Part shown: positions 1,993 through 64,000 of the stretch, one piece after another
How the letters are laid out: the number at the start of each line of letters is the position of its first letter
Numbering within the stretch: the stretch's first letter is position 1
Assembly: GCA_951812955.1 (NCBI GenBank)
Contig: OX638340.1
Span: 2,432,001 to 2,496,000 of the forward strand
Direction of reading: 5' to 3'
Source: an uncultured Gemmatimonadota bacterium
GTDB lineage: Bacteria > JAAXHH01
Length of the DNA stretch: 64,000 nucleotides
Translations under genes and position numbers: made by a program
The notes under the pieces: model-generated
Database searches by the model: none
Told to the model about the DNA's origin: nothing
Seen by the model: only the letters and a program-made list of their open reading frames with translations

Positions 1993-2003
1993 AGTGGTTC
2001 CTT

Positions 2004-2618: not shown

Positions 2619-2757
2619 GATGGTCTCCTCGGGGCCGGGCCGGTGAAAGGGGTTGATGGAAAGGACCAGCGCAACGGAGAAAAGGGCCGGCGCGAAGGGC
2701 CGATGAAACGTGCCGGGGCGCACCAAAACGCATCAACGAGCGCCTGAAAACCCATAA

Positions 2758-5429: not shown

Positions 5430-5436
5430 AAATGGA

Positions 5437-9315: not shown

Positions 9316-9321
9316 GGAAGG

Positions 9322-28637: not shown

Positions 28638-28908
28638 GCGCAACTCCGTCTTGCCCGTTCGCACTGGACGGTCGTGAAAGTGATTCTGTGGCTGGACCGA
28701 CCGGTTGCGCCTGTGGGGCGTAGATCCCTGCGGGACGGGCGAAATGGTCGTTTTCTCAAGAAAAAGCAACGTAAGAGCAAATCAGAAGGATGTCAAGCAC
28801 AAACCATCAGCGTAATAGGTACGGATACCTTGACAAACGGGGGTTCCCGGCCTACCATCATAGCGCTTCGAATCGTCGAATAACCCCGATTCCCGGAAGG
28901 GAGAAACA

Positions 28909-43386: not shown

Positions 43387-44172
43387 ATGATGACACGTTT
43401 TAAAAACATGAATTGCGTCGTCCTTGCGGCGCTTTGCTGCCTGCTCGGCGTGGCGCTGTGGACGAATCGCGGCGCCGGTGATTCGGGCCACGACCTCTTC
43501 CTGCGCAACGACTTCACCTTTGGCCGGGTAGTATACCAGAATTTCGGGGGCTTCTACCGGGGTTTCGGTTTCGGGCGGTGGTCGGTGGATTTCCCGTCTG
43601 CGGATTCCAACGTGATCCGCGCCCTGCGGGCCACCACTTCTCTCAAGATCAACGAACCGCAATCCGTGGAACTTACCGATCCCGAACTGTTCGATATTCC
43701 CTTTCTGTATATCCTGGAAGTCGGATCCCTGCAGTTCAGTCCGGAGGAAGTGGACGCCCTGCGGGAGTACCTATTGCGCGGGGGGTTCCTTCTGGTGGAC
43801 GACTTCCACGGTTCGCGGCAGTGGGCGGTCTGGGAATCGCAGATCAAGCGGGTGTTTCCCGGGCGGGACATCGAGGAGATACCGGCCGACCACCCGATCC
43901 TGCACTGTTACTATGATTTCGACACCTACCCCCTGGTGCCCGGGATCGCGGCGCTGTGGAACATGAACCACTACGAAAGGGACGGCGCCCTGTACGGCCA
44001 CAGGCTGCGGGGGATATTCGACGACGGCGGAAGGCTCATGGTGCTGATGAACTGGAACGCAGACCTGGGCGACGGCTGGGAACACGCGGCCGATCCCGGG
44101 TATCCGCGGGAGTTTTCCGTAACCGCCTACCGCCTGGCCGTCAATTACGCCATCTACGCGATGACGCATTGA
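43387..44172 (+). CDS. DUF4159-domain secreted protein
   Basis: Signal peptide, then …DFPSADSNVIRALRATTSLKINEP…FLYILEVGSLQFSPEEVDALREYLLRGGFLLVDDFHG… DUF4159 commonly accompanies MoxR/VWA pairs. Confidence 0.5.
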   Translation: MMTRFKNMNCVVLAALCCLLGVALWTNRGAGDSGHDLFLRNDFTFGRVVYQNFGGFYRGFGFGRWSVDFPSADSNVIRALRATTSLKINEPQSVELTDPELFDIPFLYILEVGSLQFSPEEVDALREYLLRGGFLLVDDFHGSRQWAVWESQIKRVFPGRDIEEIPADHPILHCYYDFDTYPLVPGIAALWNMNHYERDGALYGHRLRGIFDDGGRLMVLMNWNADLGDGWEHAADPGYPREFSVTAYRLAVNYAIYAMTH

Positions 44173-44236
44173 TCCAGCCGGCAGGGATCTCCCCGGACCC
44201 GTCGAGTACCCGCGGTCTCATTCTTTATTCGTTGAA

Positions 44237-45289
44237 TCAATCGGCGGAGGACAGCTGCCTGAGCGCGGAGGTCATCACTTCGACGGACCGGAGATACTCG
44301 TCCAGTACGATGTGCTCGTCCGGCGTATGGTCCAGTCTTGAGTCTCCCGGACCGTAGGCCGCGATCGGGCACCCCCATGCCGGGCCGAGGATGCACATGT
44401 CCGACGTGCCCGTCTTCTTCTTGAAGGTGGGCCGGCCCCCAGCCTGCCGGATGGCCCGCAACAGCGAACGGATCATCGGGGTGTTCTTCGGCGCGACGAT
44501 TCCTACCAGCCGCCGGTCGCATTCGATCTCCGCGGGACCCGCCTGTTCCTTCACGAAGCCGATCAGGCCGTCTATGTCGTATTCCGGCGGCACGCGCATC
44601 GAGAAATAGGCGTCCACGCCTTCGGCCAATCCATGGTCGTAGGTATTGAATCGCCGCATTTCGAGCCGGGGAGACTCGAATTCGCTTTCGGTGGCGTGGG
44701 ATGCTGCGCGGGACCGCAGAGCGTTGTAAAGATCTACGGCCCGGTCCCCCGCCCGCCGATGGTCGCCGGCGTGATGGGCGTTGGGCTGTTCGAGCCGGTA
44801 GTCGAAACCTACGAAACCCTTGTACCCGATGGTGATGCTGTCCCAGCCGCTCGGCTCGCCGATGAATACGTAGCCCGGCCGCATGCGGTCCACCAGGTGG
44901 AAGGCGCCCTTCGACGTGGGGCACTCCTCTTCCACGGCGCCGACCAGGGTGATCCGGCCGTTTTCGAGTTCCGTCAAACGGGAAAGGGCGGCGGCGAAGG
45001 CGGCCAGTGGGCCCTTGGCGTCCACGGCGCCCCGGCCGTATAGGCGGCCGCTTTCTTCGCGTATCGGAACGACGCCCGGTACGGTGTCGATATGCCCGAC
45101 CAGTGCGATATGCGGTTCGCCGCGGCCGACTTCGCCCACGGCGTTTCCCGCCTCGTCCACGTGGGCACGGATCCCCCTCCGTTCCATCCACTCGATCAGG
45201 TAGGAGACCGCCTCGCTCTCCTGCGTTGAGGGACTGAACCGCTCGATAAGGCCCCGCAGCAGCGCGACGTCGTCGCGGGCGTCGCTCAT
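44237..45289 (-). CDS. lysK: M20-family hydrolase, [LysW]-lysine/ornithine hydrolase (LysK/ArgE-like)
   Basis: ATG at 45289..45287 overlapping the lysJ stop (ATGA). 350 aa. M20 metal ligands in …ALVGHIDTVP…GRGAVDAKG… The longer 566-aa track ORF is an upstream out-of-context extension. Confidence 0.7.
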   Translation of the reverse strand: MSDARDDVALLRGLIERFSPSTQESEAVSYLIEWMERRGIRAHVDEAGNAVGEVGRGEPHIALVGHIDTVPGVVPIREESGRLYGRGAVDAKGPLAAFAAALSRLTELENGRITLVGAVEEECPTSKGAFHLVDRMRPGYVFIGEPSGWDSITIGYKGFVGFDYRLEQPNAHHAGDHRRAGDRAVDLYNALRSRAASHATESEFESPRLEMRRFNTYDHGLAEGVDAYFSMRVPPEYDIDGLIGFVKEQAGPAEIECDRRLVGIVAPKNTPMIRSLLRAIRQAGGRPTFKKKTGTSDMCILGPAWGCPIAAYGPGDSRLDHTPDEHIVLDEYLRSVEVMTSALRQLSSAD

Positions 45290-46554
45290 TTCCCCTCCCG
45301 GGCCGCGGTTCGGCCGCGGCCGGCGCGACGCCGATCCCGGCTGTTTCCTTCCCCGCGTCCCGGGCCGGACCGGCCGGACGACGGGTTTTCTCCAAGGGCG
45401 TCCAGTGCTTCGTGCGTTGCCGCCACAACCTGGTCGATTTCCTCCGTGGAGATCGACAGCGGCGGCAGGAACCGCAGCACGGTATTGCCCGCGGGCAGGG
45501 CTAGTACACCCCGTTCCATGAGCCCGCGCAGTACGGGCGTGACCCGGCTCTTCAGCTCGACGCCGATGATCAGGCCCATGCCCCGTATCTCCCGTACGGC
45601 GGGGTGGGCCAACGCCGCGAGGCCTTCCCGGAAATACCCGCCGGCCTCCCTGGCGTTCTCGACAAGGCCTTCCTCGTCCAGCACACGCAGAGTCGCCAGC
45701 CCCGCCGCGCAGATCACCGGGCTGCCGCCGAAGGTGTTTCCGTGGGACATGGACGGGACGCCCTGGACCGCGTCCCCGCAGAGCGCCGCGCCGACGGGGA
45801 GCCCTCCGGCCATGGCCTTGGCCAGGCAGAGGATGTCCGGCCGTATACCGTGGTGCTCGCAGGCAAACATGGCGCCCGTTCTGCCGAACCCGGTCTGCAC
45901 CTCGTCCACGATGAACAAAGCGCCCCGTTCCCTGCAAAGGGCCTCTACCCGCTTCAGGTACCCACCGTCGGCCACACGCACGCCGCCCTCTCCCTGCACG
46001 ACCTCGAGGATGACCGCGGCGGTCTCCTCGCCGATGGCTTCTTCCATGGCGGCGGGATCATTGTATCTGACGTGGGAGAATCCGGGCACGAGGGGTTCAA
46101 AGGGGGCGCGATACTTGGGGTTCCACGTCGCGCTCAATGCGCCGAAGGTGCGTCCGTGGAATCCGCGCTGGGCCGCGATCACGCCGGTTTTTCCCGTGAC
46201 GGCCCGGGCGAATTTCAACGCCGCTTCCACCGCCTCCGTACCGGAGTTGCACAGGAACAGCCGGTCGAGCCCCGCCGGGGCCGCCTCGACCAGGGCCGCG
46301 CCCAGTTCCGCACGCACATCGTTGTAGAAGGAGTCCGGGCATATCGTGAGGCGGTTCACCTGCCGCGTGACCGCTTCGGCCACGGCCGGGTGGCTGTGGC
46401 CAATGTTGGCCGTGCCGATCCCGCCGATGCAGTCGATGTATTCCTTACCGGCGGCGTCCCATACACGCGTGCCGCGGCCGCGGACGATCACCGCGTCGCG
46501 TTTCGGCAGGATGCCCATGGAAACGCCATTTTCCATTGTCTGGTAGTCTGTCAT
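45286..46554 (-). CDS. lysJ: Class III PLP aminotransferase, acetylornithine/[LysW]-aminoadipate semialdehyde aminotransferase (LysJ/ArgD)
   Basis: …LCNSGTEAVEAALKFAR…IVDEVQTGFGRTG…, with the PLP-lysine context in …LCLAKAMAGGLPVGA…. Confidence 0.85.
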   Translation of the reverse strand: MTDYQTMENGVSMGILPKRDAVIVRGRGTRVWDAAGKEYIDCIGGIGTANIGHSHPAVAEAVTRQVNRLTICPDSFYNDVRAELGAALVEAAPAGLDRLFLCNSGTEAVEAALKFARAVTGKTGVIAAQRGFHGRTFGALSATWNPKYRAPFEPLVPGFSHVRYNDPAAMEEAIGEETAAVILEVVQGEGGVRVADGGYLKRVEALCRERGALFIVDEVQTGFGRTGAMFACEHHGIRPDILCLAKAMAGGLPVGAALCGDAVQGVPSMSHGNTFGGSPVICAAGLATLRVLDEEGLVENAREAGGYFREGLAALAHPAVREIRGMGLIIGVELKSRVTPVLRGLMERGVLALPAGNTVLRFLPPLSISTEEIDQVVAATHEALDALGENPSSGRSGPGRGEGNSRDRRRAGRGRTAAREGK

Positions 46555-46576
46555 GTTCCCCGTACTCCTGTTTTCG

Positions 46577-47374
46577 TTACCCGATTACCGTGCCCTGTCC
46601 ACGCAGCGCAGCCGTGACGGGTCCGGGTATCCTCCCGTCGCCCAGGATCACCTTTCCCACCCCGACTTCCAGCGCCTCTTTCGCGCCGAGCAGCTTCTTC
46701 TTCATGCGGTCCCGGGCGTGGGTCGCGATCGCCTCGTCTATGTCCTCACGGGCGAGGCGGGGGATCAGCGTGTCTTCGTCCTCGGCGTCCTCGAGGAATC
46801 CAGGCGTGTTGGAAAGGATGACCAGCCTGTCCGCCCCGAGGGCGTCGGCGATCACGGCGGCCGCCCGGTCGCCGTCCACGTTGATGATCTCCCCCTCGTA
46901 GCTGATGGCCGGCGGCGTGATGACCGGCAGGTAACCCTGGTCCAGCAATGAGGTCAGCAGCGGTACGTTCGCCTTCTCGACCCGGCCTGTGTAATCGTTT
47001 CTCAGGACCTTCTTCCGGCCGTCCTCCACGATCCGGAGGGTGGGTTTCCGCCTGCCCTCGAGGAGGCGACCGTCGACCCCGCTCAGTCCTACGGCGTTGG
47101 CGCCGAGCTGCTGCAGTTTCTCCACGATGCGCTTGTTTCGCTTGCCGCAATACACCATGTTGAAGATATCCAGCGTCTCCGGATCGGTATATCGGCTCGT
47201 GTACCCGGAGGGCGACGTGACCATGCGGGGCGGCTTGCCCAGTTGTGTCGATACGGTGTTCAATTCGTCGGAACCGCCGTGCACCAGCACCAGCGGTTCG
47301 GTCTGCCGCGCGATGTCCTCCAGTACGTAGTCCAGGTTGATGCCCCTGCTGCCTCCGGTCTTCACCACGATCAT
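46577..47374 (-). CDS. lysZ: Short amino-acid-kinase-family carboxylate kinase, [LysW]-aminoadipate/glutamate kinase (LysZ/ArgB)
   Basis: MIVVKTGGSRG… begins the AAK fold. At 265 aa it is the short archaeal/Thermus-type kinase. Its start overlaps the hisS stop by 4 nt. Confidence 0.7.
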   Translation of the reverse strand: MIVVKTGGSRGINLDYVLEDIARQTEPLVLVHGGSDELNTVSTQLGKPPRMVTSPSGYTSRYTDPETLDIFNMVYCGKRNKRIVEKLQQLGANAVGLSGVDGRLLEGRRKPTLRIVEDGRKKVLRNDYTGRVEKANVPLLTSLLDQGYLPVITPPAISYEGEIINVDGDRAAAVIADALGADRLVILSNTPGFLEDAEDEDTLIPRLAREDIDEAIATHARDRMKKKLLGAKEALEVGVGKVILGDGRIPGPVTAALRGQGTVIG

Positions 47375-48636
47375 GCCGTGCCGCCTCCCTTAACCGCGTC
47401 CAGCACCTCCCACCTGGGAAGGGCCGTCTGCGTACTGTCCGCCATGCGCCGTACCATGACGACGCCGTTTTTCACCTCTTCTTCGCCGATGATCAGGGTG
47501 TATGCGGCACCGATCCGGTCGGCCTGCTTCATCTGGGCCTTCAGGCTGCGGTCCTCCCACAGGGCCGCCGCGCCCACGCCGGCCGAGCGAAGTTCCTGTG
47601 CCAGGACCACGGCGGCGTCCTTGGCCTCGGCGCCGAGATAGGCAACGAACACGGCAGGTTTCGGCACTTCCGGGGGTTCGATCCCCTCCTGCTTCATCGT
47701 GAGGATGATGCGCTCTATGCCCGACGCGAAGCCGATAGCCGGCGTTTCGGGTCCGCCCACCATTCCGATCAGTCCGTCGTACCGCCCGCCCCCGCACACC
47801 GCGTTCTGCGCGCCGATGCCCTCTGCCCAGACCTCGAACACCGTCTTCGTATAGTAGTCGAGTCCCCGCACCATGCGGTGGTTGACCTCGTAAGGGCGGC
47901 CCAGGGCGTCCAGGTACGACCTCAGCTGGACGAAGTGGTCATTGCATGCACCGCACAGGGATTTCGCGATCCGCGGCGCCCCCTCCGCTATCTTCCCGCA
48001 GGATTCCCGCTTGCAATCCAGAAGCCGCAGCGGGTTCTCGCCATAGCGGCGCCGGCAATCATCGCAGATCCCGTCCAGGTGCTGTTCGTACCAAGCCTTC
48101 AGCGTAGCGATGTATCCAGGCCGGCAAGCGGGACACCCCGTACTGTTCACCTGGAAGGACAGCCCCTTGATGCCGACGGCTTCGTAGATCTGCCAGGCGA
48201 CCTGCATCACCTCGAGGTCGATGGCCGGGTCCTGGCTGCCCAGTACCTCCACGTCGACCTGGTAGAACTGGCGGTATCTTCCCGCCTGCGGACGTTCGTA
48301 CCGGAAAGCCGGACCGATCGTATAGAGTCTCAGGGGCTGGGGCCTGCCATGGAGCTTGCGCTCGGCGTAGGCTCGGCAGATCCCCGCCGTGAATTCGGGC
48401 CGCAGCGTCATGCGCTCGTCACTCCGGTCGCGGAAGGTGTACATCTCCTTCTCCACGATGTCCGTGGTCTCGCCGACGCCCCGCTCGAAGAGGCCGGTCT
48501 GCTCGAAGACGGGCACGTCGATCCGCTCGTAGCCGTACAGTTCGCAGACCTGCCGGGTCATCTCGGTCACGAACCGCCAGTAGGCCTGGTCCTCCGGCAG
48601 GATGTCGTAGGTGCCTCTCGGTGCCTGGAATTTCAT
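47371..48636 (-). CDS. hisS: Histidine--tRNA ligase
   Basis: MKFQAPRGTYDILPEDQAYWRFVTE… class II aaRS motifs. Embedded between lysY and lysZ on the same strand. Confidence 0.85.
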   Translation of the reverse strand: MKFQAPRGTYDILPEDQAYWRFVTEMTRQVCELYGYERIDVPVFEQTGLFERGVGETTDIVEKEMYTFRDRSDERMTLRPEFTAGICRAYAERKLHGRPQPLRLYTIGPAFRYERPQAGRYRQFYQVDVEVLGSQDPAIDLEVMQVAWQIYEAVGIKGLSFQVNSTGCPACRPGYIATLKAWYEQHLDGICDDCRRRYGENPLRLLDCKRESCGKIAEGAPRIAKSLCGACNDHFVQLRSYLDALGRPYEVNHRMVRGLDYYTKTVFEVWAEGIGAQNAVCGGGRYDGLIGMVGGPETPAIGFASGIERIILTMKQEGIEPPEVPKPAVFVAYLGAEAKDAAVVLAQELRSAGVGAAALWEDRSLKAQMKQADRIGAAYTLIIGEEEVKNGVVMVRRMADSTQTALPRWEVLDAVKGGGTA

Positions 48637-48668
48637 TTTGGTCTTCCTATACCGGTCTATACCGGTTC

Positions 48669-49712
48669 CTATACCGGATGCAGGCCCGGAAACTCGAGGC
48701 CCGTCCGTTCGTCCCACCCGTACATGATGTTGAGCGCCTGAACGGCCTGGCCGGCCGCGCCCTTGACCAGGTTGTCCAGCGCCCCCATGACCACGACGCG
48801 GTCGCTGTGCTCGTCCCGTTCGAACCCGACGTCGCAGAAGTTGGTGCCCGACAGGAACTTCGGATCGGGATAGCGGAACACGCCCTGCCGCTCCTTGATG
48901 ATGCGGATGAAGGGCTCCCGTCCATAGGCCTCCCGGTAGATACTCCAGATTTCCCGTTCTGACAGGCCGTCGTTCACGAAGGCGTGGGTCGTCATCAGGA
49001 TGCCGCGCACCAGTTCGATGGCCGTCGCGGAGAAATGGACCTGCGGCGCCTGTCCCCCGAAAGTCAGTTCCTGCACGATCTCTGCCGTATGGCGATGACC
49101 CGTAGGCTTGAAAGAGCGCACCGCGCCGCTTCGGTCGGGGTGGTGGGTGGACCGGTCGGCCCGGTTACCGGCAGCGGAGGACCCGATCTTGCCCTCCATG
49201 TAGAGACGCGAGGGGTCCACCGCGCCAGCCCGCACCAGGGGCGCCAGCGACAGGATCGCCGTGGCGGCCAGGCAACCGGTGCACGCGACGTGCTCGGCGT
49301 CCCGTATCTCGTCACGGTACAGTTCGGCCAGGCCGTACACGAAGCGGTCCAGCATCTCCGGGTGCGCGTGCTCGTGCCCGTACCACGTGGGATAGTCCGC
49401 CGCGTTCCGCAGGCGGAAGTCCGCGCTCAGGTCGATGATGCGGCCGCCCAGGCCCGAAAAGGCGTCCCATCGTTTCATGGCCTCCCCGTGGGGCAGGCAC
49501 AGGCACAATACGTCGCAGGGCTCCAGGTCGGCCATGGCGCTGAATTTCAGGTCCGTGACTCTGCGGAGGTTGGGATGGGCGCGTCCGACGGGCTTGCCGG
49601 CCTGCGATTCCGACGTCACCTGATGGATTTCTATTTCGGGGTGGAAGAGCAGCAGCCGAAGCAGTTCGCCGCCGCCGTACCCGGACGCTCCTGCGATCGA
49701 CACCTTGATCAT
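48669..49712 (-). CDS. lysY: N-acetyl-gamma-glutamyl-phosphate / [LysW]-aminoadipyl-phosphate reductase (LysY/ArgC)
   Basis: [21 protein letters not shown] Rossmann motif. Active-site Cys in …[12 protein letters not shown]…. Confidence 0.8.
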
Positions 49713-50548
49713 GATCGGGCCACCTTTACCAGGTAGTCTATGATGCGCCCGGGAATGTCCACACCCGTTGGCCGGACGCTGTTACGGAATTCCATGGTGT
49801 AGTTCACCTCGTTGACCAGGATCCCCTCGGGAGATTCAAGCAGGTCGACCGCCACCACGCCGCCGCCCACCGCTTCCGCCGCGCGGGAGGACAGCGTCCC
49901 CACGTCCCCGTCGATGGGACAGTCCGCGGTCGTTCCCCCCAGGGCTGTGTTGGTCTTCCAGTGATCCGAATAGCGGTAGACGGCGCAGATGGTTTCGCCG
50001 TCGACCACGAAGGACCGGATATCCCGCCCGGGCTTCTCCACGTACTCCTGGATATAGAACACGGAGTGGTGATAGGACCCCAGGACCTCCTTGTGCTCCA
50101 GCACCGCTTCCGCCGCGTGGCGGTCGTTGATGCGGGCGATCAGCCGTCCCCACGATCCGATGGGCGGCTTGAGTACGACGGGGTAACCCATGGTTTCCAT
50201 CACCTCCAGCGCCGCTTCCGCCGTGAAGGCCACGCGCGCCTTCGGCGTCGGTACGCCGTGATCCACCAGCGCCATGGTCGTCAGGAACTTGTTCCCGCAC
50301 ACGCGGGCCACGTCGTAGGTGTTAACCGTCCTGATACCGCTGGCGTTCAGCATCTTGAGCGAGTAGAGCGCCCTGGAGTGGTTGACGCACCGCTCCAGGA
50401 TGACGTCGTGGTCGTACCGGTGGTTCTCCAGGTCGAAGATGATGCGCCGGTCGTCCATCCGGTCGAAGGCGACGCCCCGTTTCGCAGCCGCCTCGAAGAG
50501 CATCTTCTGTTCCGTGGATACAATGGAAAGTAGCATGCCGATCTTCAC
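49709..50548 (-). CDS. lysX: RimK/LysX-family ATP-grasp ligase (LysX or ArgX), paralog 2
   Basis: GTG at 50548..50546 overlapping the upstream stop (GTGA); alternatively the ATG at 50536. [26 protein letters not shown]… ATP-grasp RimK-like motifs. The 510-aa track ORF is an upstream extension. Confidence 0.7.
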
Positions 50549-51399
50549 GATGCCCTGCCTCCCTTCGTCACCGTATCCGCTACGTAGTCCATGATTTTGC
50601 CCGGTATATTGACCCCGGTGGCGTCCGACGCGTCGGAAAGGCCGGACGGCGGGCCCATCTCCTGCACGTACCAGGCGTCCTTCGTGCGGACCATGTCCAC
50701 CACCGCGACGCCGCCGCCAATGGCCTCGACGGCAGAGACCGCCAGGCCGTTCAACTCCTCCGTTACGGGTTCGTTCTCCATCAGGCCGCCGGCGGCGATG
50801 GTCCCGATCCAGTGATGGGTCAGCACCGACACGGCGGCCACCGTCTCGCCACCCACCACGTACGCCCGTATGTCGTGACCAGGCGCATCGATATGTTTCT
50901 GCATGAAGAAGATGGAATGGTGATAAGCGCCGAGTATGCGTTTGTGCTCCAGGACCGTCGCCGCCGTATACTTGTCTCCTATGCGGGAAACGAGCTGGTC
51001 CTCGGGGCCCTCCGCGGGTCTCAATACGACCGGGTATCCCATGTCTTCCATTGCCTTGAGCGCCGAGTCCGGCGTATAGGCCAGGCGCATGTCCGGAACC
51101 GGGACGCCCCTCTCCCGCAACGCCAGGGTCGTCAGCAGCCGGTTTCCGTAGGTCTCCACCACGGACTGCCGATTCACCGTGGGTATGCCCCAGTGGTCGA
51201 ACACGGAGAGCGCGTATACGGCCCGGTGGTGATCGACGCACCGTTCCAGGACCACGTCCAGGTCCATGTGCCGGCGGTCGAGTTCGAAGACCTGCCGGGA
51301 ATTGTCGATCGTCGTCACGTCGAAACCGCGCAGACCCGCTTCGGCGATCAGCCGCTTTTCGTCCTTTCGGATCCGAGACAGCACAATGCCCATTTCCAT
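50545..51399 (-). CDS. RimK/LysX-family ATP-grasp ligase (LysX or ArgX), paralog 1
   Basis: [28 protein letters not shown]… Same fold and length (284 aa) as paralog 2, clearly related but diverged. Confidence 0.7.
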
Positions 51400-51430
51400 G
51401 GTTCCCGCACCTTCTTCCTGGTCATGCCAT

Positions 51431-51481
51431 ACAAAAAAAGGAGCCGGCCTCTTCGCTCAATCGGAAGAGGAACCTGGCTCC
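51431..51481 (-). terminator. Strong intrinsic terminator/attenuator between lysW and the first lysX paralog
   Basis: The minus-strand RNA folds as GGAGCCAGGUUCCUCUUC-CGAUUGAGC-GAAGAGGCCGGCUCC (about 15 bp GC-rich stem) followed by UUUUUUU. It lies 30 nt upstream of the lysX-paralog start codon. Confidence 0.55.
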
Positions 51482-51641
51482 TGTCAGTTCCCTTGGTCCG
51501 GTTATGCCCCGTAGGGGATCAACACGGACCGCGATGAGCGAACGAACGCAAATCACAATCATGGTATCCATGTTTATGTTTCATTCGTTTATTCATCGCC
51601 GTTTCCTGTTCTCGTTTGAACCCGCAATGCGGGTGAGGGGC

Positions 51642-51806
51642 CTATTCTCCCCAGTCTTCTTCTTCTTCCGGCGCCAACTCCAATTCCAGCGGACTGACGC
51701 TGATTACCTCGAGCTCCGCGCCGCATTCTTCACACTCCAGGATTTCGCCTTCAACGACATCATCGTCCACGTTGACAGCGGCGCCACACTCCGGGCAGGT
51801 TCCCAT
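51642..51806 (-). CDS. lysW: Amino-group carrier protein LysW
   Basis: MGTCPECGAAVNVDDDVVEGEILECEECGAELEVISVSPLELELAPEEEEDWGE is 54 aa. It has a CxxC-N17-CxxC zinc ribbon and the acidic EDWGE C-terminus that is the conjugation site in LysW proteins. Confidence 0.8.
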   Translation of the reverse strand: MGTCPECGAAVNVDDDVVEGEILECEECGAELEVISVSPLELELAPEEEEDWGE

Positions 51807-51940
51807 GATATCCCCCGAATTACCTGGACATAGCCCAGTACTGAAACCCATTCCAGGGTCCTTTTACCCCATCGGGAAGGGCCCCGGTCCATGCTGGAAC
51901 GGTCGAAATATATGGCGCGGTTAAACCGTGTCAAGCGCTT

Positions 51941-54439
51941 TTATGAAGGATTTTCGTCCGTCTCCCCGGTGGATTCGTCCGCTGCGGCCGACGCCGATTC
52001 GTCATCTTCCTCGCCGGGCGTAATCCTGGACACGTCGATCACCCGGTCCCCCTCGTCGAGGTTGATGAGCCGGACACCCTGGGTATTCCGGCCGATGGGT
52101 CGCAGGTCGCGGACAGGCAGGCGTATGATGAGGCCTTTCGTGGTGATAATCATCAGTTCGTCTTCGTCGGAGACGGCGTGAATCGACACGACGGGACCGT
52201 TGCGTTCGCTGGTGCGTATGTTGCTCACGCCCTTGCTGTGCCGGCGGGTCAGCCGGTAGCTCGCGATGTCCGTCCGCTTACCGTAGCCGTTTTCCGTCAC
52301 GGAAAGCAGCGTGGTGTCCCGTCCGGACGCCAGCATGCCCACGACCCGGTCGTCTTCGCCGAGGCGAATGCCACGCACTCCCTGTGCGCCGCGGCCCATC
52401 GTCCGGACATCGCTCTCGTGAAAACGGACGGCCTGGCCATTCCGGCTGGCGATGACGATGTCGTTGCCTCCATCGGTAAGCAGGGCCTCGATGAGGGCGT
52501 CGCCCTCGAGGATGTTCAGTGCAACGATGCCGTTCCGGCGGGGATTCCCATAAGCGGAAAGAACGGTCTTCTTCACGAGACCACCCCGCGTAACCATCAT
52601 GATGTAGTGGTCGTCGTCGAACGTCCTGATCGGCAGGAAGGCCGCAATACTCTCGCCCTGGCCGAGCTGCAGCAGGTTGACCACGGCCTTGCCACGGGCC
52701 GTGCGTCCGGCTTCGGGGATCTCCCACACCTTGAGCCAGTAACACTTACCTCGGTTCGTGAAGAACAGGATATAGGAATGGGTCGAGGCGGAGAAGAGGT
52801 GCTCCACGAAGTCCTCTTCACGGGTCTTCATGCCGGTGATCCCCTTGCCGCCGCGGTTCTGGCTGCGATAGGTGTCCATGGGCAGGCGCTTGACGTAGCC
52901 GGCGTGGGAGATGGTGATGACCATTTCCTCGTCGGCGATCAGGTCCTCGATGCTGAGATCGCCTTCGATGTCGATCAACTCGGTCCGTCTTTCATCGCCG
53001 TAGCGTTCCTTCAGGTCGAGCATCTCTTCCTTGATGATCTGCATCCGGCGATCCAGGCGTGAGAGGATATCCCGGAAATCGGCGATCCGGGCGACCAGTT
53101 CGTTGTATTCTTCCTCGAGCTTGTCCCTTTCCAGTCCGGTCAGGCGCTGCAGGCGCATGTCCAGGATGGCCTCGACCTGGGCACGGGACAGTCCGAACTC
53201 GTCCACCAGGATCTCCATGGCCTCCTCGCCGGTACGCGACCCGCGGAGGATTTCGATCACGCGGTCCACGTTGTCCAGCGCGATGCGCAGACCTTCCACG
53301 ATGTGGGCCCGTTGCTCGGCCTTCTCGAGGTCGAAGGTGGTCCGGCGCACCAGCACCTCGTGACGGTGGTCGATGAAGTGCTGAATGCATTCCTTGATGT
53401 TCAGGACGCGGGGACGTCCGTCCACGAGCGCCAGCATGGTGACGCCGATGGTGGTCTCGAGCGACGTCATCTTGAAGAGGTGGTTCAGTACGATTGTGCC
53501 CGGGATATCCCGCCGCACGTCGATGGCGATGCGCAGACCCGACCGGTCGGACTCGTCCCGTATATCGGTAATGCCCAGTATCTGCTTTTCACGGACGAGG
53601 TCGGCGATCTTCTCGATCAGGCTGGCCTTGTTGACCTTGTACGGGATTTCCGTGATGACGATGGTTTCCTTCTCGCTTTGCTCATGAAGCTCGATCTCCG
53701 TGCGGGCGCGCACCTTGATCTTGCCGCGGCCGGTGTGGAAATACTCTTTAATCGCGTTGCGGCCGTATATGATCGCGCCGGTGGCAAGATCGGGACCCTG
53801 GATGTGTCCGGCGATCTCATCGATCGTGATTTCCGGGTTCTCGATCACCGCCACCATCCCATCCACCACCTCGCTGAGGTTATGGGAAGGCAGGTTGGAT
53901 GCCATGCCCACGCCAATACCGAGCGACCCGTTGCAAAGCAGGTTGGGGAACTTGCCCGGAAGCACCGTCGGCTCGTCTTTCGACTCGTCGTAGTTGGGCA
54001 TGAAATCGACGGTGTTCTTGTCGATATCCTCCATCATCTCGATGGCCAGGCGGGACATCCTCGATTCGGTGTACCGCATGGCGCCCGGGGGATCGCCGTC
54101 TATGGAACCGAAATTCCCCTGTCCGAAGACCATGGGGTAACGCATGCTGAACGGCTGGGCCATCCGCGCGAGGGTGTCGTATACGGCCAGGTCTCCGTGG
54201 GGATGGTAATCACCGATCGTCTGGCCGACGATCTTGGCGCATTTCCGCGTGGGCCGTCCCGGTGTGAGGTTCAGGTCGCGCATCGCCACGAGTATGCGTC
54301 GCTGGGACGGTTTGAACCCGTCGCGGACGTCCGGAATCGCCCGTGACAGATTCACACTCATGGAGAAGTCGAGATAGGAACTCTTCATCTCGTCTTCGAT
54401 GAAGATGGGCTGAATATTGTCGTGTTGTTCTACCGCCAT
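51941..54439 (-). CDS. gyrA: DNA gyrase subunit A
   Basis: …LSRAIPDVRDGFKPSQRRILVAMRDL…AMRYTESRMS (active-site Tyr context). 832 aa. Confidence 0.95.
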   Translation of the reverse strand: MAVEQHDNIQPIFIEDEMKSSYLDFSMSVNLSRAIPDVRDGFKPSQRRILVAMRDLNLTPGRPTRKCAKIVGQTIGDYHPHGDLAVYDTLARMAQPFSMRYPMVFGQGNFGSIDGDPPGAMRYTESRMSRLAIEMMEDIDKNTVDFMPNYDESKDEPTVLPGKFPNLLCNGSLGIGVGMASNLPSHNLSEVVDGMVAVIENPEITIDEIAGHIQGPDLATGAIIYGRNAIKEYFHTGRGKIKVRARTEIELHEQSEKETIVITEIPYKVNKASLIEKIADLVREKQILGITDIRDESDRSGLRIAIDVRRDIPGTIVLNHLFKMTSLETTIGVTMLALVDGRPRVLNIKECIQHFIDHRHEVLVRRTTFDLEKAEQRAHIVEGLRIALDNVDRVIEILRGSRTGEEAMEILVDEFGLSRAQVEAILDMRLQRLTGLERDKLEEEYNELVARIADFRDILSRLDRRMQIIKEEMLDLKERYGDERRTELIDIEGDLSIEDLIADEEMVITISHAGYVKRLPMDTYRSQNRGGKGITGMKTREEDFVEHLFSASTHSYILFFTNRGKCYWLKVWEIPEAGRTARGKAVVNLLQLGQGESIAAFLPIRTFDDDHYIMMVTRGGLVKKTVLSAYGNPRRNGIVALNILEGDALIEALLTDGGNDIVIASRNGQAVRFHESDVRTMGRGAQGVRGIRLGEDDRVVGMLASGRDTTLLSVTENGYGKRTDIASYRLTRRHSKGVSNIRTSERNGPVVSIHAVSDEDELMIITTKGLIIRLPVRDLRPIGRNTQGVRLINLDEGDRVIDVSRITPGEEDDESASAAADESTGETDENPS

Positions 54440-54495: not shown

Positions 54496-57185
<2,690 letters not shown>

Positions 57186-57194
57186 GCCCGAGTC

Positions 57195-58304
57195 TCAGTC
57201 ATAAGGCGTCACCGCGCCTTCGTGGACGCGGAAACGGGTAATCCCGCGCCGGTAGTCCCCGATATCGCTTTCTTTGGCCGTCGTAATGAAGGTCTGGCCG
57301 TACGTGGGAACCATTTCCATCAGGCGGCCCGTCCTGGCAGCGTCGATCTCCGCGAAGATGTCATCGAGAAGCAGCAGCGGGGGGGCCTGCAACTGGCGCC
57401 AGAGAAAGCGGGCTTCCGCCAGCTTCAGGGCCGTCGCCGCCGTCTTGTGCTGCCCCTGCGATCCAAATGTCTGCAGCGACACCCCGTTCATCCGGATGGA
57501 CAGGTCGTCCCGGTGCGGCCCCACCTCCGTCATGCCCCGCGCCCGTTCCCGGGACGCGGCACGGTCCAGCGCCTCCTCGAAGGCGGCCTCGATATCGGCC
57601 AGGGCCTCGAAATCGAAGGATGGCGCATAGCCGATCTCCAGTCGCTCCGCGTCTTCACTGACGGAGGCGTGAATACCCGACGCTTCATCCTTCAGGTCCG
57701 CGATCACTTCCACCCGTTTCCTCATGATGCGGCTGCCAAGCTCGACAAGCGGCACGTTCCATACTTCGAGGTCTCCCATCCTTCCCGGGTTCTCCTGTAA
57801 CGCACGCAAGGCCTCGTTGCGTTGGCGGACCACCCGTCTGTACTCCTGCAGGGCGGAAAGATACGCCGCGTTGGACTGCGAGATCGCAATGTCCAGAAAA
57901 CGCCGGCGTGAACTCGGCGAGCCCTGGACGAGCCTCCGGTCGTCCGGTGAAATCACCACGGCTGCCAGGATGCCGTACAGATCCGACAGGTTCCGCCGGG
58001 GAGACTCGTTTACGAATACCTTCTTTCCCGCCTGGCGGGCGTACCTGATCTGCACCTCGACCTCCCTGCCCTCCGCCGACCGCCCCGTTCCCTGTATCAG
58101 GAAATGGTCCGATCCCATGCGCACGAGATCCCGGTCCTGTGACTCGCGGCAGGAACGGGCCACGCATAGGTAGTAAATCGCCTCCAGGAGGTTGGTCTTG
58201 CCCTGGCCGTTCGTTCCGATAAAAACATTTGTCTGTAAATCACAGGCCAGCGACAGGTCCGTGTAATTCCTGAAATGGCGGAGGTCCAGCCCTTGCAGGT
58301 GCAC
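57195..58304 (-). CDS. recF: DNA replication and repair protein RecF
   Basis: MHLQGLDLRHFRNY…GTNGQGKTNLLEAIYYL Walker A and an SMC-like signature. Confidence 0.9.
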   Translation of the reverse strand: MHLQGLDLRHFRNYTDLSLACDLQTNVFIGTNGQGKTNLLEAIYYLCVARSCRESQDRDLVRMGSDHFLIQGTGRSAEGREVEVQIRYARQAGKKVFVNESPRRNLSDLYGILAAVVISPDDRRLVQGSPSSRRRFLDIAISQSNAAYLSALQEYRRVVRQRNEALRALQENPGRMGDLEVWNVPLVELGSRIMRKRVEVIADLKDEASGIHASVSEDAERLEIGYAPSFDFEALADIEAAFEEALDRAASRERARGMTEVGPHRDDLSIRMNGVSLQTFGSQGQHKTAATALKLAEARFLWRQLQAPPLLLLDDIFAEIDAARTGRLMEMVPTYGQTFITTAKESDIGDYRRGITRFRVHEGAVTPYD

Positions 58305-58306
58305 CT

Positions 58307-59437
58307 TTAACTTTCCGGTTCGGTCGTTCTAAAGGGCATGATCAGGCACTGGTAGTCCTCGCCCTCCGCTTCTTCTTTGGAAGGGGTGATGATCCCCGCG
58401 CTGACGGGTGAATCGAGTTTGAAAACCACTTCGTCGCTCTCGATCCGTTCCACGACATCGAGCAGATACCGGAAGTCGTAGGTCGTATCCATGGCTTCAC
58501 CTTCGTATTCGGCCGGCACTTCCTCCCGGGCTTCTCCGCCGATGTCATGGCTGGACGAACTCAATTCGACGAACCCCGGCCGGAACGAATACCGAATCTG
58601 CCGGGTGGAGGGGTTGGACAGGACGGACACCCGACGGACGGCGCTTTCCAGTTCTTCGCGGTTCACCTTGACCACCTTGTCGTTCCCCGTGGGAATAACC
58701 CGTTCGTAATCCGGATAGGTCGCTTCGATCAGCCTGGCGAACAGCTGGGCGTTCTCGAGTTCGAAATGGACGTGGTTCTGGCCGATCGTGATGCGGGACG
58801 GCGTATCCGATTCTCCGATGAGGCGCGAGAGGTTGTTCAGCGCTTTTGGCGGCACGATGATCCCCTCCGTGCCCTCATCGGAAACATCACAGGGGAGGGT
58901 CGTCTTGGCCAGGCGGTGCCCATCGGTTGCCACCATCCGGACGGCGCCTCTGCCTATGCGCAGGAAAGCGCCCCACAGACTCGGGTGTATCTCGTCCTTC
59001 GATACCGCATACACTGTCTTGCGGATCAACCGCTGCAACGAAGACGCCGGCAGGGAAATGGTCTGATCCGAAGGCAGATCGGGCATCGCCGGGTACTCTT
59101 CCTTGCTGATGCCCACCAGGCGGAACACCCCCCTGTCGCACCTGACCGTCACCTTGACCCCGTCCACCTCGATATCCACGGGCGCATCTGGTAACTCGCG
59201 CACCATCTCCGCGAATTTCCTTCCGGGCACCGTGATAGAGCCTCCCTCCGTTATCTGGGCGGGTATCTTCGTCACGATGAATATATCCAGATCGGTGGCC
59301 CCTATCGTCAGGTGGCCATCTTCGGTCTCGAGCAGCAAGTTGGACAGGATGGGCAGGGTGGACTTCGGTGGGACGACATTCAGGACGGTCTGTATACCGC
59401 TCATCAGCGTGGAACTGGCCGGTATGGTGATCTTCAC
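58307..59437 (-). CDS. dnaN: DNA polymerase III beta sliding clamp
   Basis: VKITIPASSTLMSGIQTVLNVVPPKSTLPILSNLLLETEDGHLTIGATDLD… The start is placed at the GTG (VKITI); the track ORF has an upstream extension. Confidence 0.85.
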   Translation of the reverse strand: MKITIPASSTLMSGIQTVLNVVPPKSTLPILSNLLLETEDGHLTIGATDLDIFIVTKIPAQITEGGSITVPGRKFAEMVRELPDAPVDIEVDGVKVTVRCDRGVFRLVGISKEEYPAMPDLPSDQTISLPASSLQRLIRKTVYAVSKDEIHPSLWGAFLRIGRGAVRMVATDGHRLAKTTLPCDVSDEGTEGIIVPPKALNNLSRLIGESDTPSRITIGQNHVHFELENAQLFARLIEATYPDYERVIPTGNDKVVKVNREELESAVRRVSVLSNPSTRQIRYSFRPGFVELSSSSHDIGGEAREEVPAEYEGEAMDTTYDFRYLLDVVERIESDEVVFKLDSPVSAGIITPSKEEAEGEDYQCLIMPFRTTEPES

Positions 59438-59512
59438 AGAGGTACTCCTTTGGGCAATCGTCGCCGGTTGCCTTGTTCGATGCACTCGGCATGGAATGAA
59501 CAAAGGCCGCAA

Positions 59513-60180
59513 TTTGTACAGTAACCTTTTACCACTATTGAATATTATAAAGAAAACAGGAGGCAGTACGCAAGGGATTTGTGAGGCAAATCCTACTTCA
59601 TGTTGTATAACGGCGTGGGTAGTCCACTGAAAAAGTACAATATATTGTGTATATGTATTAATATAGTATGAGTATATAAGAAAGACATAATACTAATAAA
59701 GGATGTGGATATGTGCATAAGTGCGTCATATGGATGATAACCACCAATTAAATCAGTTAATTACGTAAAAAACACCATGTGGAAAAAGTAGCACCTAAAC
59801 AGATGTTTATCCACACTTATCCACACACTAAAGACCAGGTACGGCAAAAACACCCGTTTATACACATTGCATCGACAATTCCTATACCCTTATCCCCCGG
59901 GTTATCCACATTAAATACAGCCCCGAATGGGCCTGTTGCGTACATGAACTGACCCGCACCGCTACGTGGCCGTTCCGTCCGGATCGGAAGCCTATCCACA
60001 TCGAGGTCGGATTCCCGTAGTGGATAGGTGTGGAAACTTCGGAAACACAGCGAGTAAACTCTTGTCGGAGAGGAGGTTATGATAGTCTTATATTGTCAAC
60101 AAAATGTGGATAACCACCAACTTATCCACATCGTGGTGGGGGAATTGCCTGGTTGGAGAGGGTGTTGAACGGCAGGCGGG
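59513..60180. other. oriC: Chromosomal replication origin oriC (DnaA-box cluster plus AT-rich unwinding region)
   Basis: TTATCCACA-type boxes at ~59827, 59837, 59902, 59992 (CTATCCACA), 60020 (rc), 60105 (rc) and 60122, plus weaker ones (TGTGGATAT ~59704). An AT-rich stretch lies at 59580-59800. Located between dnaA and dnaN. Confidence 0.8.
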
Positions 60181-61542
<1,362 letters not shown>

Positions 61543-61806
61543 TGCGTATTACCTTGTGGACCGAAGGAAATGGAATGCCCGTGAACGGACCGGTGGAATC
61601 CCGGTCCGAAAACATACTCGTACGCTCGCATGTTACATGCTAAATTGTTGTAATTACTACATTTAAGGTGGTGTTTGGTACTACAACAAATCCACGGCAG
61701 GCGGAAACGTTGCGGGTAGTATCTGAACAATAGTATGTAACGCGAAGCGGGTGCTGTCAAGATTAATATCGAAAAGATTTGCGCCTTCTCGATTACCAAA
61801 AACAAC

Positions 61807-61835
61807 TTGACAAAATCGCGATCGCCCGGTATTAT
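61807..61835 (+). promoter_or_regulatory. sigma70-type promoter of rpmH (TTGACA-N17-TATTAT)
   Basis: cTTGACAaaatcgcgatcgcccggTATTATcg read directly, ~50 nt upstream of the rpmH ATG. Confidence 0.6.
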
Positions 61836-61884
61836 CGAGGGCTGTTATTTTTAAGAAAAAAGCAGGAAATACCGGGAGTAAACG

Positions 61885-62019
61885 ATGAAGCGGACCTTTC
61901 AACCGAGCAATCTCAAGCGGCACCGCAGGCACGGCTTTCGTCGAAGGATGAGCACCAAGGCGGGACGGCTGATTCTGAATCGCCGCCGCGCCAAGGGAAG
62001 GACCCGCGTTGCCGTTTAG
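61885..62019 (+). CDS. rpmH: 50S ribosomal protein L34
   Basis: Manual translation: [44 protein letters not shown] (44 aa). Not in the ORF track because of its size. Confidence 0.85.
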
Positions 62020-62051
62020 GCGCCGCCCGAGTGCGGCAGGACCGATGTGCC

Positions 62052-62423
62052 ATGGCCGCCGGTTCCCGACGTTTCCCCCAAGACGAACGCATGAGACACC
62101 GGTGGGAGTTCGAACGAGTCAGGAAGAGCGGGCAGACCGTCCGGGGACGTTCAATGATCCTGTCCCTGGCCCCCTGCCCGGACCGGCTTGAACGCCGGGT
62201 CGGATTCGTCGTGACCAGGCGCTACCGCGGAGCGGTCAAGCGTAATCTGGTCCGCCGGAGAATGCGAGAGATCTACCGGCTGAACAGAAGCCGTCTGAAG
62301 AGGGGGATGCATCTGGTGCTCATCGCCCGAAGTCCCGGGCAGGAAGCAACGTACCGCCAGATGAACGAAGAGTTCCTGTCCCTCTACCGTACCGCGGTGA
62401 CACGCATATGTGGAAAAGGCTGA
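62052..62423 (+). CDS. rnpA: Ribonuclease P protein component
   Basis: …[34 protein letters not shown]…[21 protein letters not shown]… basic RnpA pattern directly after rpmH. The start is taken at the ATG at 62052. Confidence 0.75.
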
Positions 62424-62662
62424 CCACGGCAATCACGACCACGCTCGTCTGGGGTGTCCGCGGATACCAACTCGCCGTATCCCCGCTCCTTCCGCCAAGT
62501 TGCAGGTTTACCCCCACCTGTTCAAAGTACGCCATCGAAGCGCTGGAACGAAAGGGCCCGTTCAACGGAACCTGGCTGGCCGTGCGAAGACTGCTGCGTT
62601 GCCATCCCTTTCACCCGGGCGGTTTCGATCCGGTTGATCGACCGGGTGAACCAGGTGGTTGA
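62408..62662 (+). CDS. yidD: Membrane protein insertion efficiency factor YidD
   Basis: …[54 protein letters not shown]… YidD signature. Overlaps the rnpA end. Confidence 0.8.
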
Positions 62663-62773
62663 GGTGGTAGAATCGAACCGGACGGCTGAAGCGGTTGAAG
62701 CGGCCCAGGCGGCTTAGGCGGACCACTCGATTAGCCGCAGGCCACGGCTTGAAACCCTGGAATCACATCGACA

Positions 62774-64000
62774 ATGGAAAAACGGGTACTCGGCGCATTC
62801 GGGCTCATCATACTGACCTGGATCGGTTATTACTACATTATATATCCCATGTACGCGCCCGATCTTCCTCCTCCGGTCGACCGGACGATTACGCAGGAGC
62901 AGCCGGGAGACTTTGCGACTGGGGATGGACCGGTGGGAGACTTTCCCGCTGGAGAGACCGAGGTACCGGCATTTGACGCCCCGGCGGACGCCGCAAGGCA
63001 GGAGCCGGTGCGGACGCCGTCCGCCCGTAACACATCCACCCCTCGACCCGAACAGGCCGCGGAAAGCTGGGACCGTTCGGAGCGCGTGCTGTATCTCCCC
63101 TCTGCCGAAAACGCCGCCGAACCCCGTGAAATTGTCGTAGAGAACCAGTACTACCGCGGTGTGATCAGCACGGTGGGAGGCGTCATAACCAGTTGGAAAC
63201 TAAAGGGATATAGAGGAATCGGCGGGGACGACGTGGAACTCATCCCACCCGATCGCGAAACCGGCCCCGATATCGTGCTCACCACGGAGCGGGGACCTCG
63301 CAGCACCCGCGCCCTTCGCTTCACCGCGGACCGCGACGCGGTCGTGCTGGGTCCCGGGCAGGCCTCGGGATCGCTCACGCTCACGGCCGATACGCCTGGA
63401 GGGCTCTCCGTTACCAAGGTATTCGTGATCAACCGGGACGACTACGCCGTGGACCTCCAGGTGAAGCTAAGCGGCGGGGAGAACCTGCTCCTGGGCAGCA
63501 AGTACTATCTCCGGTGGGGCGGCGGAATCAGCGTGACGGAGAAGGACTGGGACCAGGACCTTTACGCCTTTCGGGGTTTCGCTTCGCTCAACGACACGGT
63601 GATCGATGAAGACCTCGGTAGCGAGCTGGAAGACCCCAGGCCCGAGACCACGGGCGAGACCCACTGGGTCGGCGTCCGTAGCAAGTATTTCTTCACCGCC
63701 ATGGTGCCCGTGGACCGGAAGGCCAGGGGCTACCGGCTGAACGGCCGGCCCGTGCAGCGCCCGCAATACGACGACCGGCAGATCGCCGCGGAGCTGTCCA
63801 TGGGGCTTGCGTCTCCGCTTGTGGACAACTTCCTCCTCTACCTCGGACCGGTTCACTACGATACCCTGGAACAGTACGGATACGGCCTCGAGGGCGCCGT
63901 CGACCTCGGATGGGCGATCATTCAGCCCATCAGCCGGATCACGCTCATTTCGCTGGTCTGGCTGCACCAGTTCATTACCAATTACGGCGTCGTCATCATG
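62774..64000 (+). CDS. yidC: Membrane protein insertase YidC (3' end beyond window)
   Basis: Manual translation from the ATG at 62774: MEKRVLGAFGLIILTWIGYYYIIYPMY…, a long periplasmic domain, and ending …ITLISLVWLHQFITNYGVVIM at the window edge (start of the conserved YidC core). No stop codon before the window end, hence absent from the track. Confidence 0.8.
   Translation, partial: MEKRVLGAFGLIILTWIGYYYIIYPMYAPDLPPPVDRTITQEQPGDFATGDGPVGDFPAGETEVPAFDAPADAARQEPVRTPSARNTSTPRPEQAAESWDRSERVLYLPSAENAAEPREIVVENQYYRGVISTVGGVITSWKLKGYRGIGGDDVELIPPDRETGPDIVLTTERGPRSTRALRFTADRDAVVLGPGQASGSLTLTADTPGGLSVTKVFVINRDDYAVDLQVKLSGGENLLLGSKYYLRWGGGISVTEKDWDQDLYAFRGFASLNDTVIDEDLGSELEDPRPETTGETHWVGVRSKYFFTAMVPVDRKARGYRLNGRPVQRPQYDDRQIAAELSMGLASPLVDNFLLYLGPVHYDTLEQYGYGLEGAVDLGWAIIQPISRITLISLVWLHQFITNYGVVIM

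Follow-up and report, generated by a model that had tools for sequence, protein, structure and literature searches.

The 64-kb stretch of DNA analyzed here (64,000 nucleotides of contig OX638340.1, assembly GCA_951812955.1, positions 2,432,001 to 2,496,000; hereafter called the window) derives from an uncultured bacterium of the Gemmatimonadota and carries on its minus strand, at 44237-51806, a lysine biosynthesis operon of the α-aminoadipate (AAA) type that contains the amino-group carrier protein LysW. The genes are arranged in the order lysW-LigA-lysX(LigB)-lysY-hisS-lysZ-lysJ-lysK, in which LigA and LigB are tandem ligases of the LysX family. Judged from their sequences, LigB is an orthodox LysX and LigA is a lineage-specific paralogue derived from LysX, not an ArgX, with rebuilt ATP/Mg2+ and nucleophile sites; LigA probably no longer catalyses ligation and acts as a partner of LysX and/or LysW. 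Taking together the lysine operon, the remodelled and non-catalytic LigA partner and a leader-controlled read-through into the genes following lysW, we lean modestly towards this combination as the correct reading of the locus. A bolder formulation is put forward tentatively, namely that a duplicate of LysX has become a conserved subunit working with LysX/LysW, either non-catalytic or with a re-invented mechanism, and that the whole pathway plus hisS lies under a bivalent Lys/His leader placed behind the carrier gene. The underlying system is known; what sets this locus apart is the family of LysX paralogues whose active site is remodelled, together with the hisS gene inside the operon and the candidate Lys/His leader.

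Gene content and conservation of the LysW operon

Gene identities were assigned by scanning NCBIfam, TIGRFAM and Pfam profiles against their curated cut-offs, and the genes of the operon are listed below in their order of transcription.

51642-51806, minus strand: lysW, 54 aa, zinc-ribbon amino-group carrier protein with C-terminal EEEEDWGE
50545-51399, minus strand: ligase 1 (LigA), 284 aa, divergent LysX paralogue with a remodelled ATP-grasp active site
49709-50548, minus strand: ligase 2 (LigB), 279 aa, GTG start, canonical LysX ([LysW]-aminoadipate ligase)
48669-49712, minus strand: lysY/argC-family reductase, 347 aa, TIGR01850 387.8 bits
47371-48636, minus strand: hisS (histidyl-tRNA synthetase), 421 aa, full-length, between lysY and lysZ
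46577-47374, minus strand: lysZ ([LysW]-aminoadipate kinase), 265 aa, NF010659 388.3 (cut-off 223)
45286-46554, minus strand: lysJ/argD-family aminotransferase, 422 aa, TIGR00707 argD subfamily 444.9 (cut-off 410)
44237-45289, minus strand: lysK ([LysW]-lysine hydrolase, M20), 350 aa, NF003367 397.1 (cut-off 363)

The initial annotation had described a LysW amino-group-carrier operon of the AAA type, a proposal that is borne out by the profile matches to the carrier and to the enzyme families; all the genes it named were recovered in place and with their overlaps by sequence reading and family scans, and on sequence grounds the identity of the operon is sound. Missing from its gene list were hisS and the structured spacer between lysW and LigA, which spans 242 nt and holds a conserved small open reading frame (ORF) followed by a terminator-like hairpin and T7. 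LysW scores 66.2 with TIGR01206 (cut-off 53.2) and 1.4e-20 with PF21344 (Zn_ribbon_LysW), its zinc-ribbon motifs being CPECG...CEECG. The product of lysJ lies under the 700-bit cut-offs of the LysJ-specific models (450.8 with NF042418 LysJ), and its assignment as LysJ is made at the level of the subfamily together with the operon context. Direct reading of the gene junctions reveals a GTGA overlap between the LigA stop and the LigB start, and ATGA overlaps between LigB and lysY, between the hisS stop and the lysZ start, and between lysJ and lysK.

From family membership, the pathway would begin with LigB (LysX) loading AAA onto the C-terminal Glu of LysW; LysZ would then phosphorylate, LysY reduce and LysJ transaminate, with LysK finally releasing lysine. 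The LysW lysine pathway of Thermus thermophilus relies on a carrier of this type, with zinc ribbon and EDWGE tail, and on these five enzyme families, to which the locus described here adds the second LysX paralogue with its remodelled active site and an embedded, translationally coupled hisS.

Scanning one genome per species yielded 80 loci (identified by L numbers in the following). A close relative of LigA is present in 26 of them, and the order lysW-LigA-LigB-lysY-hisS-lysZ-lysJ-lysK recurs in 25 of these 26, mostly after gyrA; the exception (L026) lies on a contig of 5.8 kb that stops within LigB. Since the same order of eight genes recurs in related loci of metagenome-assembled genomes (MAGs), the arrangement is not due to chance. 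The MAGs bearing LigA are labelled Gemmatimonadota, Latescibacterota or Zixiibacteriota, and the window is essentially identical in sequence to a contig of the MAG 'Gemmatimonadetes bacterium APA_bin_41' (L001). In the remaining 54 loci, which come from Anaerolineae, Planctomycetota, Ignavibacteriota, KSB1 and others, LysX is single and hisS is lacking. This split indicates that the doubling of the ligase and the insertion of hisS are derived features shared by a single lineage. The aminotransferase gene varies at its end among the LigA-bearing loci compared (L001-L025): lysJ encodes a poorly conserved C-terminal extension of 30-45 aa rich in R, G and E (45286-45400 of the window, minus strand), which in most close relatives ends at the lysK start or overlaps it and in others is missing, and in L021 lysJ and lysK form a single ORF of 763 aa.

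LigB scores 338.2 with the LysX equivalog TIGR02144 (cut-off 275.6), is 54% identical to T. thermophilus LysX (3vpd; 301 bits) and has every ATP-grasp motif intact. Nishiyama's group has established a five-position scheme of AAA/Glu specificity that separates LysX (F-I-T-NS), ArgX (I-Y-V-GF) and bifunctional enzymes (Y-I-T-NA) by the residues at 182, 192, 203 and 258-259, in T. thermophilus numbering (PMC12998189); under this scheme, the F-V-T-NS motif of LigB is of the LysX type, as in the Thermus enzyme. LigB could nevertheless be bifunctional by itself, like the LysX/ArgX of Thermococcus, and the operon would then serve both pathways whatever LigA does. The promiscuity of downstream enzymes of this type (PMC12998189) agrees with such a role, as does the pair K200/L205 of LigB, which resembles R200/L205 of Sulfolobus tokodaii ArgX and differs from the I200/R205 of most bacterial LysX. 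However, F-V-T-NS is a strict LysX motif, the F-I-T-NS enzyme of T. thermophilus shows no more than traces of activity with Glu (PMC12998189), and K/R200 plus L205 is also seen with NS-type motifs in the family and hence is non-diagnostic; we consider a bifunctional LigB very unlikely. The substitutions I200K and R205L of LigB were also considered as a sign of co-evolution with LigA and then down-weighted, for K/R200 and L205 are common in the family, S. tokodaii ArgX included.

Phylogeny and active-site remodelling of LigA

In line with the initial annotation, both ligases belong to the LysX family and not to RimK: they contain the PF22626 LysX_preATP_grasp domain, score 53-55 bits with PRK10446 against a cut-off of 331, and have RimK as their outgroup in the phylogenetic tree described below. 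LigA is 42% identical to LigB and falls under the LysX equivalog cut-off (235.7 with TIGR02144, cut-off 275.6). It shares 55-99% identity with a set of close homologues (P0001-P0038), after which identity with ordinary LysX drops to 50% or less; among 1.84 billion representatives at 50% identity, the LigA family forms one cluster (549 bits, the next match having 308). In NCBI records its orthologues bear no more specific name than 'RimK family alpha-L-glutamate ligase'.

In a neighbour-joining tree rooted with RimK and tested with 300 bootstraps, which cannot resolve the sister group of LigA, the LigA family is monophyletic (100%) and nested within bacterial LysX (83%), with a stem branch 2-3 times longer than those of LysX. 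LigA pairs as sister with the LigB from the same genome in just 2% of the bootstraps and groups with S. tokodaii ArgX in none of the 300. Among its matches in the PDB, ArgX (3vpb) ranks fifth at 122 bits, against 193 for Thermus LysX. Two divergent LysX-like proteins (P0174 and P0182) were examined as distant kin of LigA and rejected, their identity with it being 35-37% and their contexts being different and linked to arginine.

The remodelling of the active site emerges from a table of the positions that are at least 93% conserved in 82 LysX/ArgX sequences, set against the LigA family and the RimK of Escherichia coli and Pseudomonas aeruginosa. Residues invariant in LysX, ArgX and RimK are replaced across the LigA family (K89R, K129R/K, G136D/G, R194V, N202T/S/P and N251G/S), the LigA of the window having K89R, K129R, R194V, N202T and N251G. 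We take K89 and K129 to be the two phosphate-binding lysines and N251 to be a Mg2+ ligand, on general knowledge of ATP-grasp enzymes. Invariants of the LysX family are replaced too (GSWGR by GP(E)(D/G)Q, R177H, N248Q, E255G, F256L, N258D/E and S259A), so that in our LigA GSWGR reads GPEDQ and MEFxNS reads SGLSDA. All the residues replaced in LigA are kept in about 100 diverse representatives of the family, and S. tokodaii ArgX and Thermococcus kodakarensis LysX/ArgX keep K89, K129, GSWGR, R194, N202, N251 and E255, of which LigA has none. LigA does keep D178, R180 (in the DIR motif), D237, E249 and G206-G207; at the position of R180, T. kodakarensis LysX has R173, which is in contact with the last residue of LysW (PMC10375531). 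The roles given to these residues rest on cross-family invariance, on one statement in PMC10375531 and on the general knowledge mentioned above. A further change, E170K (IQEY to IQKY), was rejected as a defect of LigA, since many canonical LysX of the FCB group also have K at this position.

These data bear directly on the suggestion of the initial annotation that the two paralogues may be a LysX plus ArgX pair. In Sulfolobus, LysX and ArgX reportedly share one LysW, and there are likewise two paralogues of the LysX family. Were LigA an ArgX-type [LysW]-glutamate ligase working beside LigB as LysX, the operon would make both lysine and ornithine/arginine in the manner of Sulfolobus. The tandem of LysX-family genes is what this reading expects, and Y182 and A259 of LigA are those of the bifunctional LysX/ArgX, with a hydrophobic residue at 203 as in ArgX (PMC12998189). 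An added Glu ligase could also be enough, because Thermus LysZ and LysY accept LysW-Glu derivatives (PMC12998189, where LigA itself is not addressed). Moreover, a KEGG-based survey of host-associated Gaopeijiales (Gemmatimonadota), again one that does not address LigA, infers a LysW-glutamate route to ornithine and finds the N-acetyl route in <20% of these organisms, a figure that may not cover the lineage of the present MAG (PMC11651109).

However, the specificity motif of LigA, Y-V-I-DA, is neither that of LysX nor that of ArgX, and five invariants of LysX, ArgX and RimK are gone together with GSWGR and MEFxNS. Sulfolobus ArgX, in contrast, keeps all the ATP-grasp catalytic residues along with the motif I-Y-V-GF, and LigA groups apart from it; the bifunctional enzyme of T. 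kodakarensis (5k2m, Y-I-T-NA), with which LigA has Y182 and A259 in common, retains the GSWGR, N202, N251 and MEFKNA that LigA has lost. The complete lack of bootstraps joining LigA to S. tokodaii ArgX and the low rank of 3vpb among its structural matches point in the same direction. The closest bacterial counterparts of the Sulfolobus arrangement lie instead in three KSB1-type loci (L061, L066 and L068), where a second ligase comes after lysW-(hcs)-lysX-lysY. Its catalytic motifs are all intact and its specificity positions are ArgX-like: I at 182, small and hydrophobic at 203, G/S at 258. On sequence, these loci have the look of a real bacterial LysX plus ArgX pair, which LigA does not resemble, and their ArgX-like ligases too arose independently, a caveat for the argument from the tree. 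Motif, phylogeny and lost invariant residues thus all disagree with an ArgX identity of LigA, which we regard as unlikely, although dual synthesis may still hold at the level of the pathway. LysW pathways serve as a model for the divergence of lysine and arginine biosynthesis from a promiscuous ancestor, and automated annotation reads two LysX-like genes as evidence of dual lysine and arginine synthesis; KEGG-style module calls in sponge-associated Gemmatimonadota already infer the LysW-glutamate route. The counting of paralogues can mislead, as at this locus.

Other bacterial LysW clusters in our set differ in their ligases. The ArgX-like second ligase that follows lysY in L061, L066 and L068 has the motif I-A/S-A-G/S-C, and a homocitrate-synthase-like gene lies between lysW and lysX in many clusters of the FCB group; the loci listed with these features (L061, L066 and L068, and L031, L050, L057, L058, L064, L069 and L074) are, from their sequences, candidates for genuine dual Lys/Arg systems. 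Arginine-linked LysW clusters occur on metagenomic contigs as well. L081/L082 (3081-8864) have argG-argH-lysW followed by a divergent LysX-like ligase (GTGGQL loop, N202 lost), an M20 peptidase and a second ligase, and L083 has argH-lysW followed by another divergent ligase. The first ligases of these clusters are non-canonical and unrelated to LigA (35-37% identity).

Could LigA be a decaying duplicate or an artefact of gene calling? Its score under the LysX equivalog cut-off and the generic name of its orthologues might suggest so, yet the ORF is intact and constant in length in 25 genomes spanning 59-100% identity, and pairwise dN/dS is 0.113, equal to that of the neighbouring enzymes (0.106 for LigB, 0.112 for LysY and 0.110 for LysZ). 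Purifying selection of this strength, the conserved 4-nt overlap with LigB and the predicted LysX fold indicate that LigA is not decaying. The AlphaFold2 model has this fold with pTM 0.79 and a TM of 0.73 to 3vpd; its confidence is low in the central domain/lid (119-142) and in the loop 197-204, and the lid is too uncertain to judge ATP binding. The conserved ORF across loci and the dN/dS values refute the notion of a pseudogene or artefact, to which we give practically no credit.

The same strong purifying selection would suit an active ligase of new chemistry or substrate, i.e. a neofunctionalised enzyme that places another amino acid on LysW or uses another acceptor or phosphoryl donor. Many of the replaced residues of the pocket are invariant within the LigA family (E130, G131, Q135, K168, V192, T194 and L254), which suggests that the pocket still does something, and several changes look like reversions to RimK (E240R, and E255G-F256L giving '...SGL...'). 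On the other hand, the position of N251 varies (G/S/A/T) and that of G136 alternates between D and G in the LigA family, suggesting relaxed constraint on the phosphoryl-transfer site, and the conserved operon has no extra carrier or substrate-supplying gene. We hold this possibility to be quite unlikely. Should LigA turn out to be an active Glu ligase devoid of the canonical residues, that would revise the essentials of ATP-grasp catalysis.

We favour the reading in which LigA would no longer catalyse canonical ATP-dependent ligation and would assist LysX and/or LysW as a non-catalytic partner, such as a regulatory or scaffolding subunit, because of its translational coupling, the retained Arg for contact with the carrier and the variability of the former Mg2+ and loop positions. 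Two systems could provide working models by analogy: HisZ, the paralogue of histidyl-tRNA synthetase (HisRS) that regulates HisG and is conserved after losing catalysis, and the hetero-oligomeric aminotransferase Ser4/Ser5, in which a dead paralogue partners an active enzyme (PMC11726168). A regulatory or scaffolding pseudoenzyme of this kind, if true, would be a new layer in carrier-protein metabolism and the first pseudoenzyme partner described there.

The candidate leader after lysW and the embedded hisS

The regulatory elements and the spacer that flanks hisS are the following.

51907-51934, minus strand: sigma-70-type promoter TTGACA-16-TATATT, upstream of lysW and right after the gyrA stop, 11/12 consensus positions
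51853-51890, minus strand: small hairpin in the lysW 5' untranslated region (UTR), its conservation weakly indicated by RNAalifold of 19 orthologous UTRs (11 pairs, 3 compensatory)
51519-51596, minus strand: 25-codon small ORF MNKRMKHKHGYHDCDLRSFAHRGPC after lysW, with AGGAAA 7-9 nt upstream, candidate Lys/His leader peptide
51433-51481, minus strand: intrinsic-terminator-like hairpin GGAGCCAGGUUCCUCUUC...GAAGAGGCCGGCUCC plus U7, about 30 nt before the LigA start, from sequence reading and the minimum free energy fold
48637-48668, minus strand: lysY-hisS spacer with three tandem copies of the lysY 3' end (CCGGTATAG)

The promoter, in the form AAAAGCGCTTGACAC-N16-TATATT, is found upstream of lysW in all 26 related loci. 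The small ORF after lysW has the consensus MSKRMKHKHGKHDCDLRSSAHRAPR, and its length of 25 codons and its KHKH motif are kept in 22 loci (L001-L022); L023 has a structurally different leader ORF in which KHKH is still present. The codon string for KHKH, AARCAYAARCAY, occurs once in the window, where 0.00 occurrences are expected. The RNA of the leader ORF region is strongly structured (z = -5.3), and between this ORF and the terminator there is a variable hairpin with compensatory changes. The terminator hairpin itself, of about -20 kcal/mol and with U6-10 behind it, recurs in 23 orthologous spacers; having a bulged stem and a 9-nt loop, it was not called by the automated promoter/terminator scan and was found by reading and folding. 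The same scan returned no promoter-like site between the terminator and LigA, so that expression from LigA through lysK, including hisS, should depend on read-through.

We hypothesize that the leader ORF and the terminator work as an attenuator of the leader-peptide type, bivalent for Lys and His and acting on the lys genes and on hisS, a design that fits an operon in which lysine enzymes are mixed with hisS. Transcription from the lysW promoter would meet the strong terminator 3' of lysW, the 25-codon Lys/His ORF would modulate read-through into the seven downstream genes, and their expression would thereby be coupled to the charging of Lys-tRNA and His-tRNA. Multivalent attenuators of the leader-peptide type govern the thr, ilv and his operons of E. 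coli. As in these, a short ORF with the relevant codons, preceded by a Shine-Dalgarno sequence, is followed by an intrinsic terminator ahead of structural genes; unlike them, no alternative antiterminator helix was found in this region, and the element follows the first gene of the operon and precedes all the others. The lysine cluster of Thermus is also under a leader peptide with Lys codons; the ORF described here differs in its alternating Lys and His codons and in its location after lysW rather than at the 5' end. To our knowledge, no Lys plus His leader controlling an aminoacyl-tRNA synthetase gene together with lysine enzymes has been described. That the operon holds hisS and a candidate Lys/His leader suggests that its regulation may be linked to tRNA charging, and leader control, if true, would be an unusual co-regulation of an aminoacyl-tRNA synthetase with the biosynthesis of a different amino acid. 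A scan of 43800-52300 with Rfam found no riboswitch or T-box at E<=1.

The hisS gene encodes a regular HisRS, with 491.9 in TIGR00442 (cut-off 286.75) and the Pfam domains PF13393 (tRNA-synt_His) and PF03129 (HGTP_anticodon). Its product matches Staphylococcus aureus HisRS (1qe0) with 372 bits and has motifs 2 and 3 intact, FRYERPQAGRYRQF and GGGRYDGL being present; the HisZ model stays under its cut-off. The gene is situated between lysY and lysZ in 25/25 related loci. The repeat unit preceding it equals the 9 nt with which lysY ends, including its stop codon. Most relatives have a spacer of 10-14 nt, L003 has four copies of the repeat and L006 more than eight copies of a 26-nt unit, from which the repeat appears to be locally unstable.

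Several observations weigh against the combined reading of a non-catalytic LigA under leader-controlled read-through. With regard to LigA, we infer the loss of catalysis solely from the replacement of conserved residues; the K-to-R changes preserve charge and a G-x-x-G loop (EGPxGQL) persists in half of the LigA family, which makes an altered but active ligase possible, and Y182, the hydrophobic residue at 203 and A259 partly recall the bifunctional and ArgX types. With regard to the leader, no mutually exclusive antiterminator emerged from folding, as the terminator survives all folds constrained by a ribosome footprint, and in RNAduplex the leader arm pairs with the terminator no more strongly than shuffled arms do, 63-174 of 200 shuffles being equal or better. 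The deep relatives L024-L026, moreover, have the terminator without a KHKH ORF. Finally, the genes for the formation of AAA (homocitrate synthase, homoaconitase and homoisocitrate dehydrogenase, HICDH) are absent from the 64-kb window.

Genomic context and other features of the window

Directly behind gyrA, the lys operon forms the next transcription unit, in the region of the replication origin. This region (54496-64000) contains rnpA and yidC on the plus strand, and dnaA, dnaN, recF, a DUF721 gene, gyrB and gyrA on the minus strand. The 64 kb of the window contain no dap or arg genes. The sole gene of the aconitase family in the window lies at 25866-28781 and encodes an AcnA-type protein of 971 aa, and no tRNA genes were found in the window.

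At the opposite end of the window (3-2732, minus strand), a LexA-like repressor (Peptidase_S24 plus LexA DNA-binding domain) adjoins an unannotated ORF and an IMS gene (ImuB/Y-family polymerase-like), a group that by sequence resembles an SOS mutagenesis cassette. The G+C content of the first 2 kb is 0.70. It is 0.50-0.56 between about 10800 and 18000, over a block of minus-strand ORFs, and about 0.62 elsewhere; this low-GC block may be an acquired island. An AbiEii-type toxin gene is present at 5404-6174 (plus strand), and a pair of multihaem cytochrome c genes, one NapC/NirT-like and the other of a seven-haem type, occupies 7225-9321 (minus strand).

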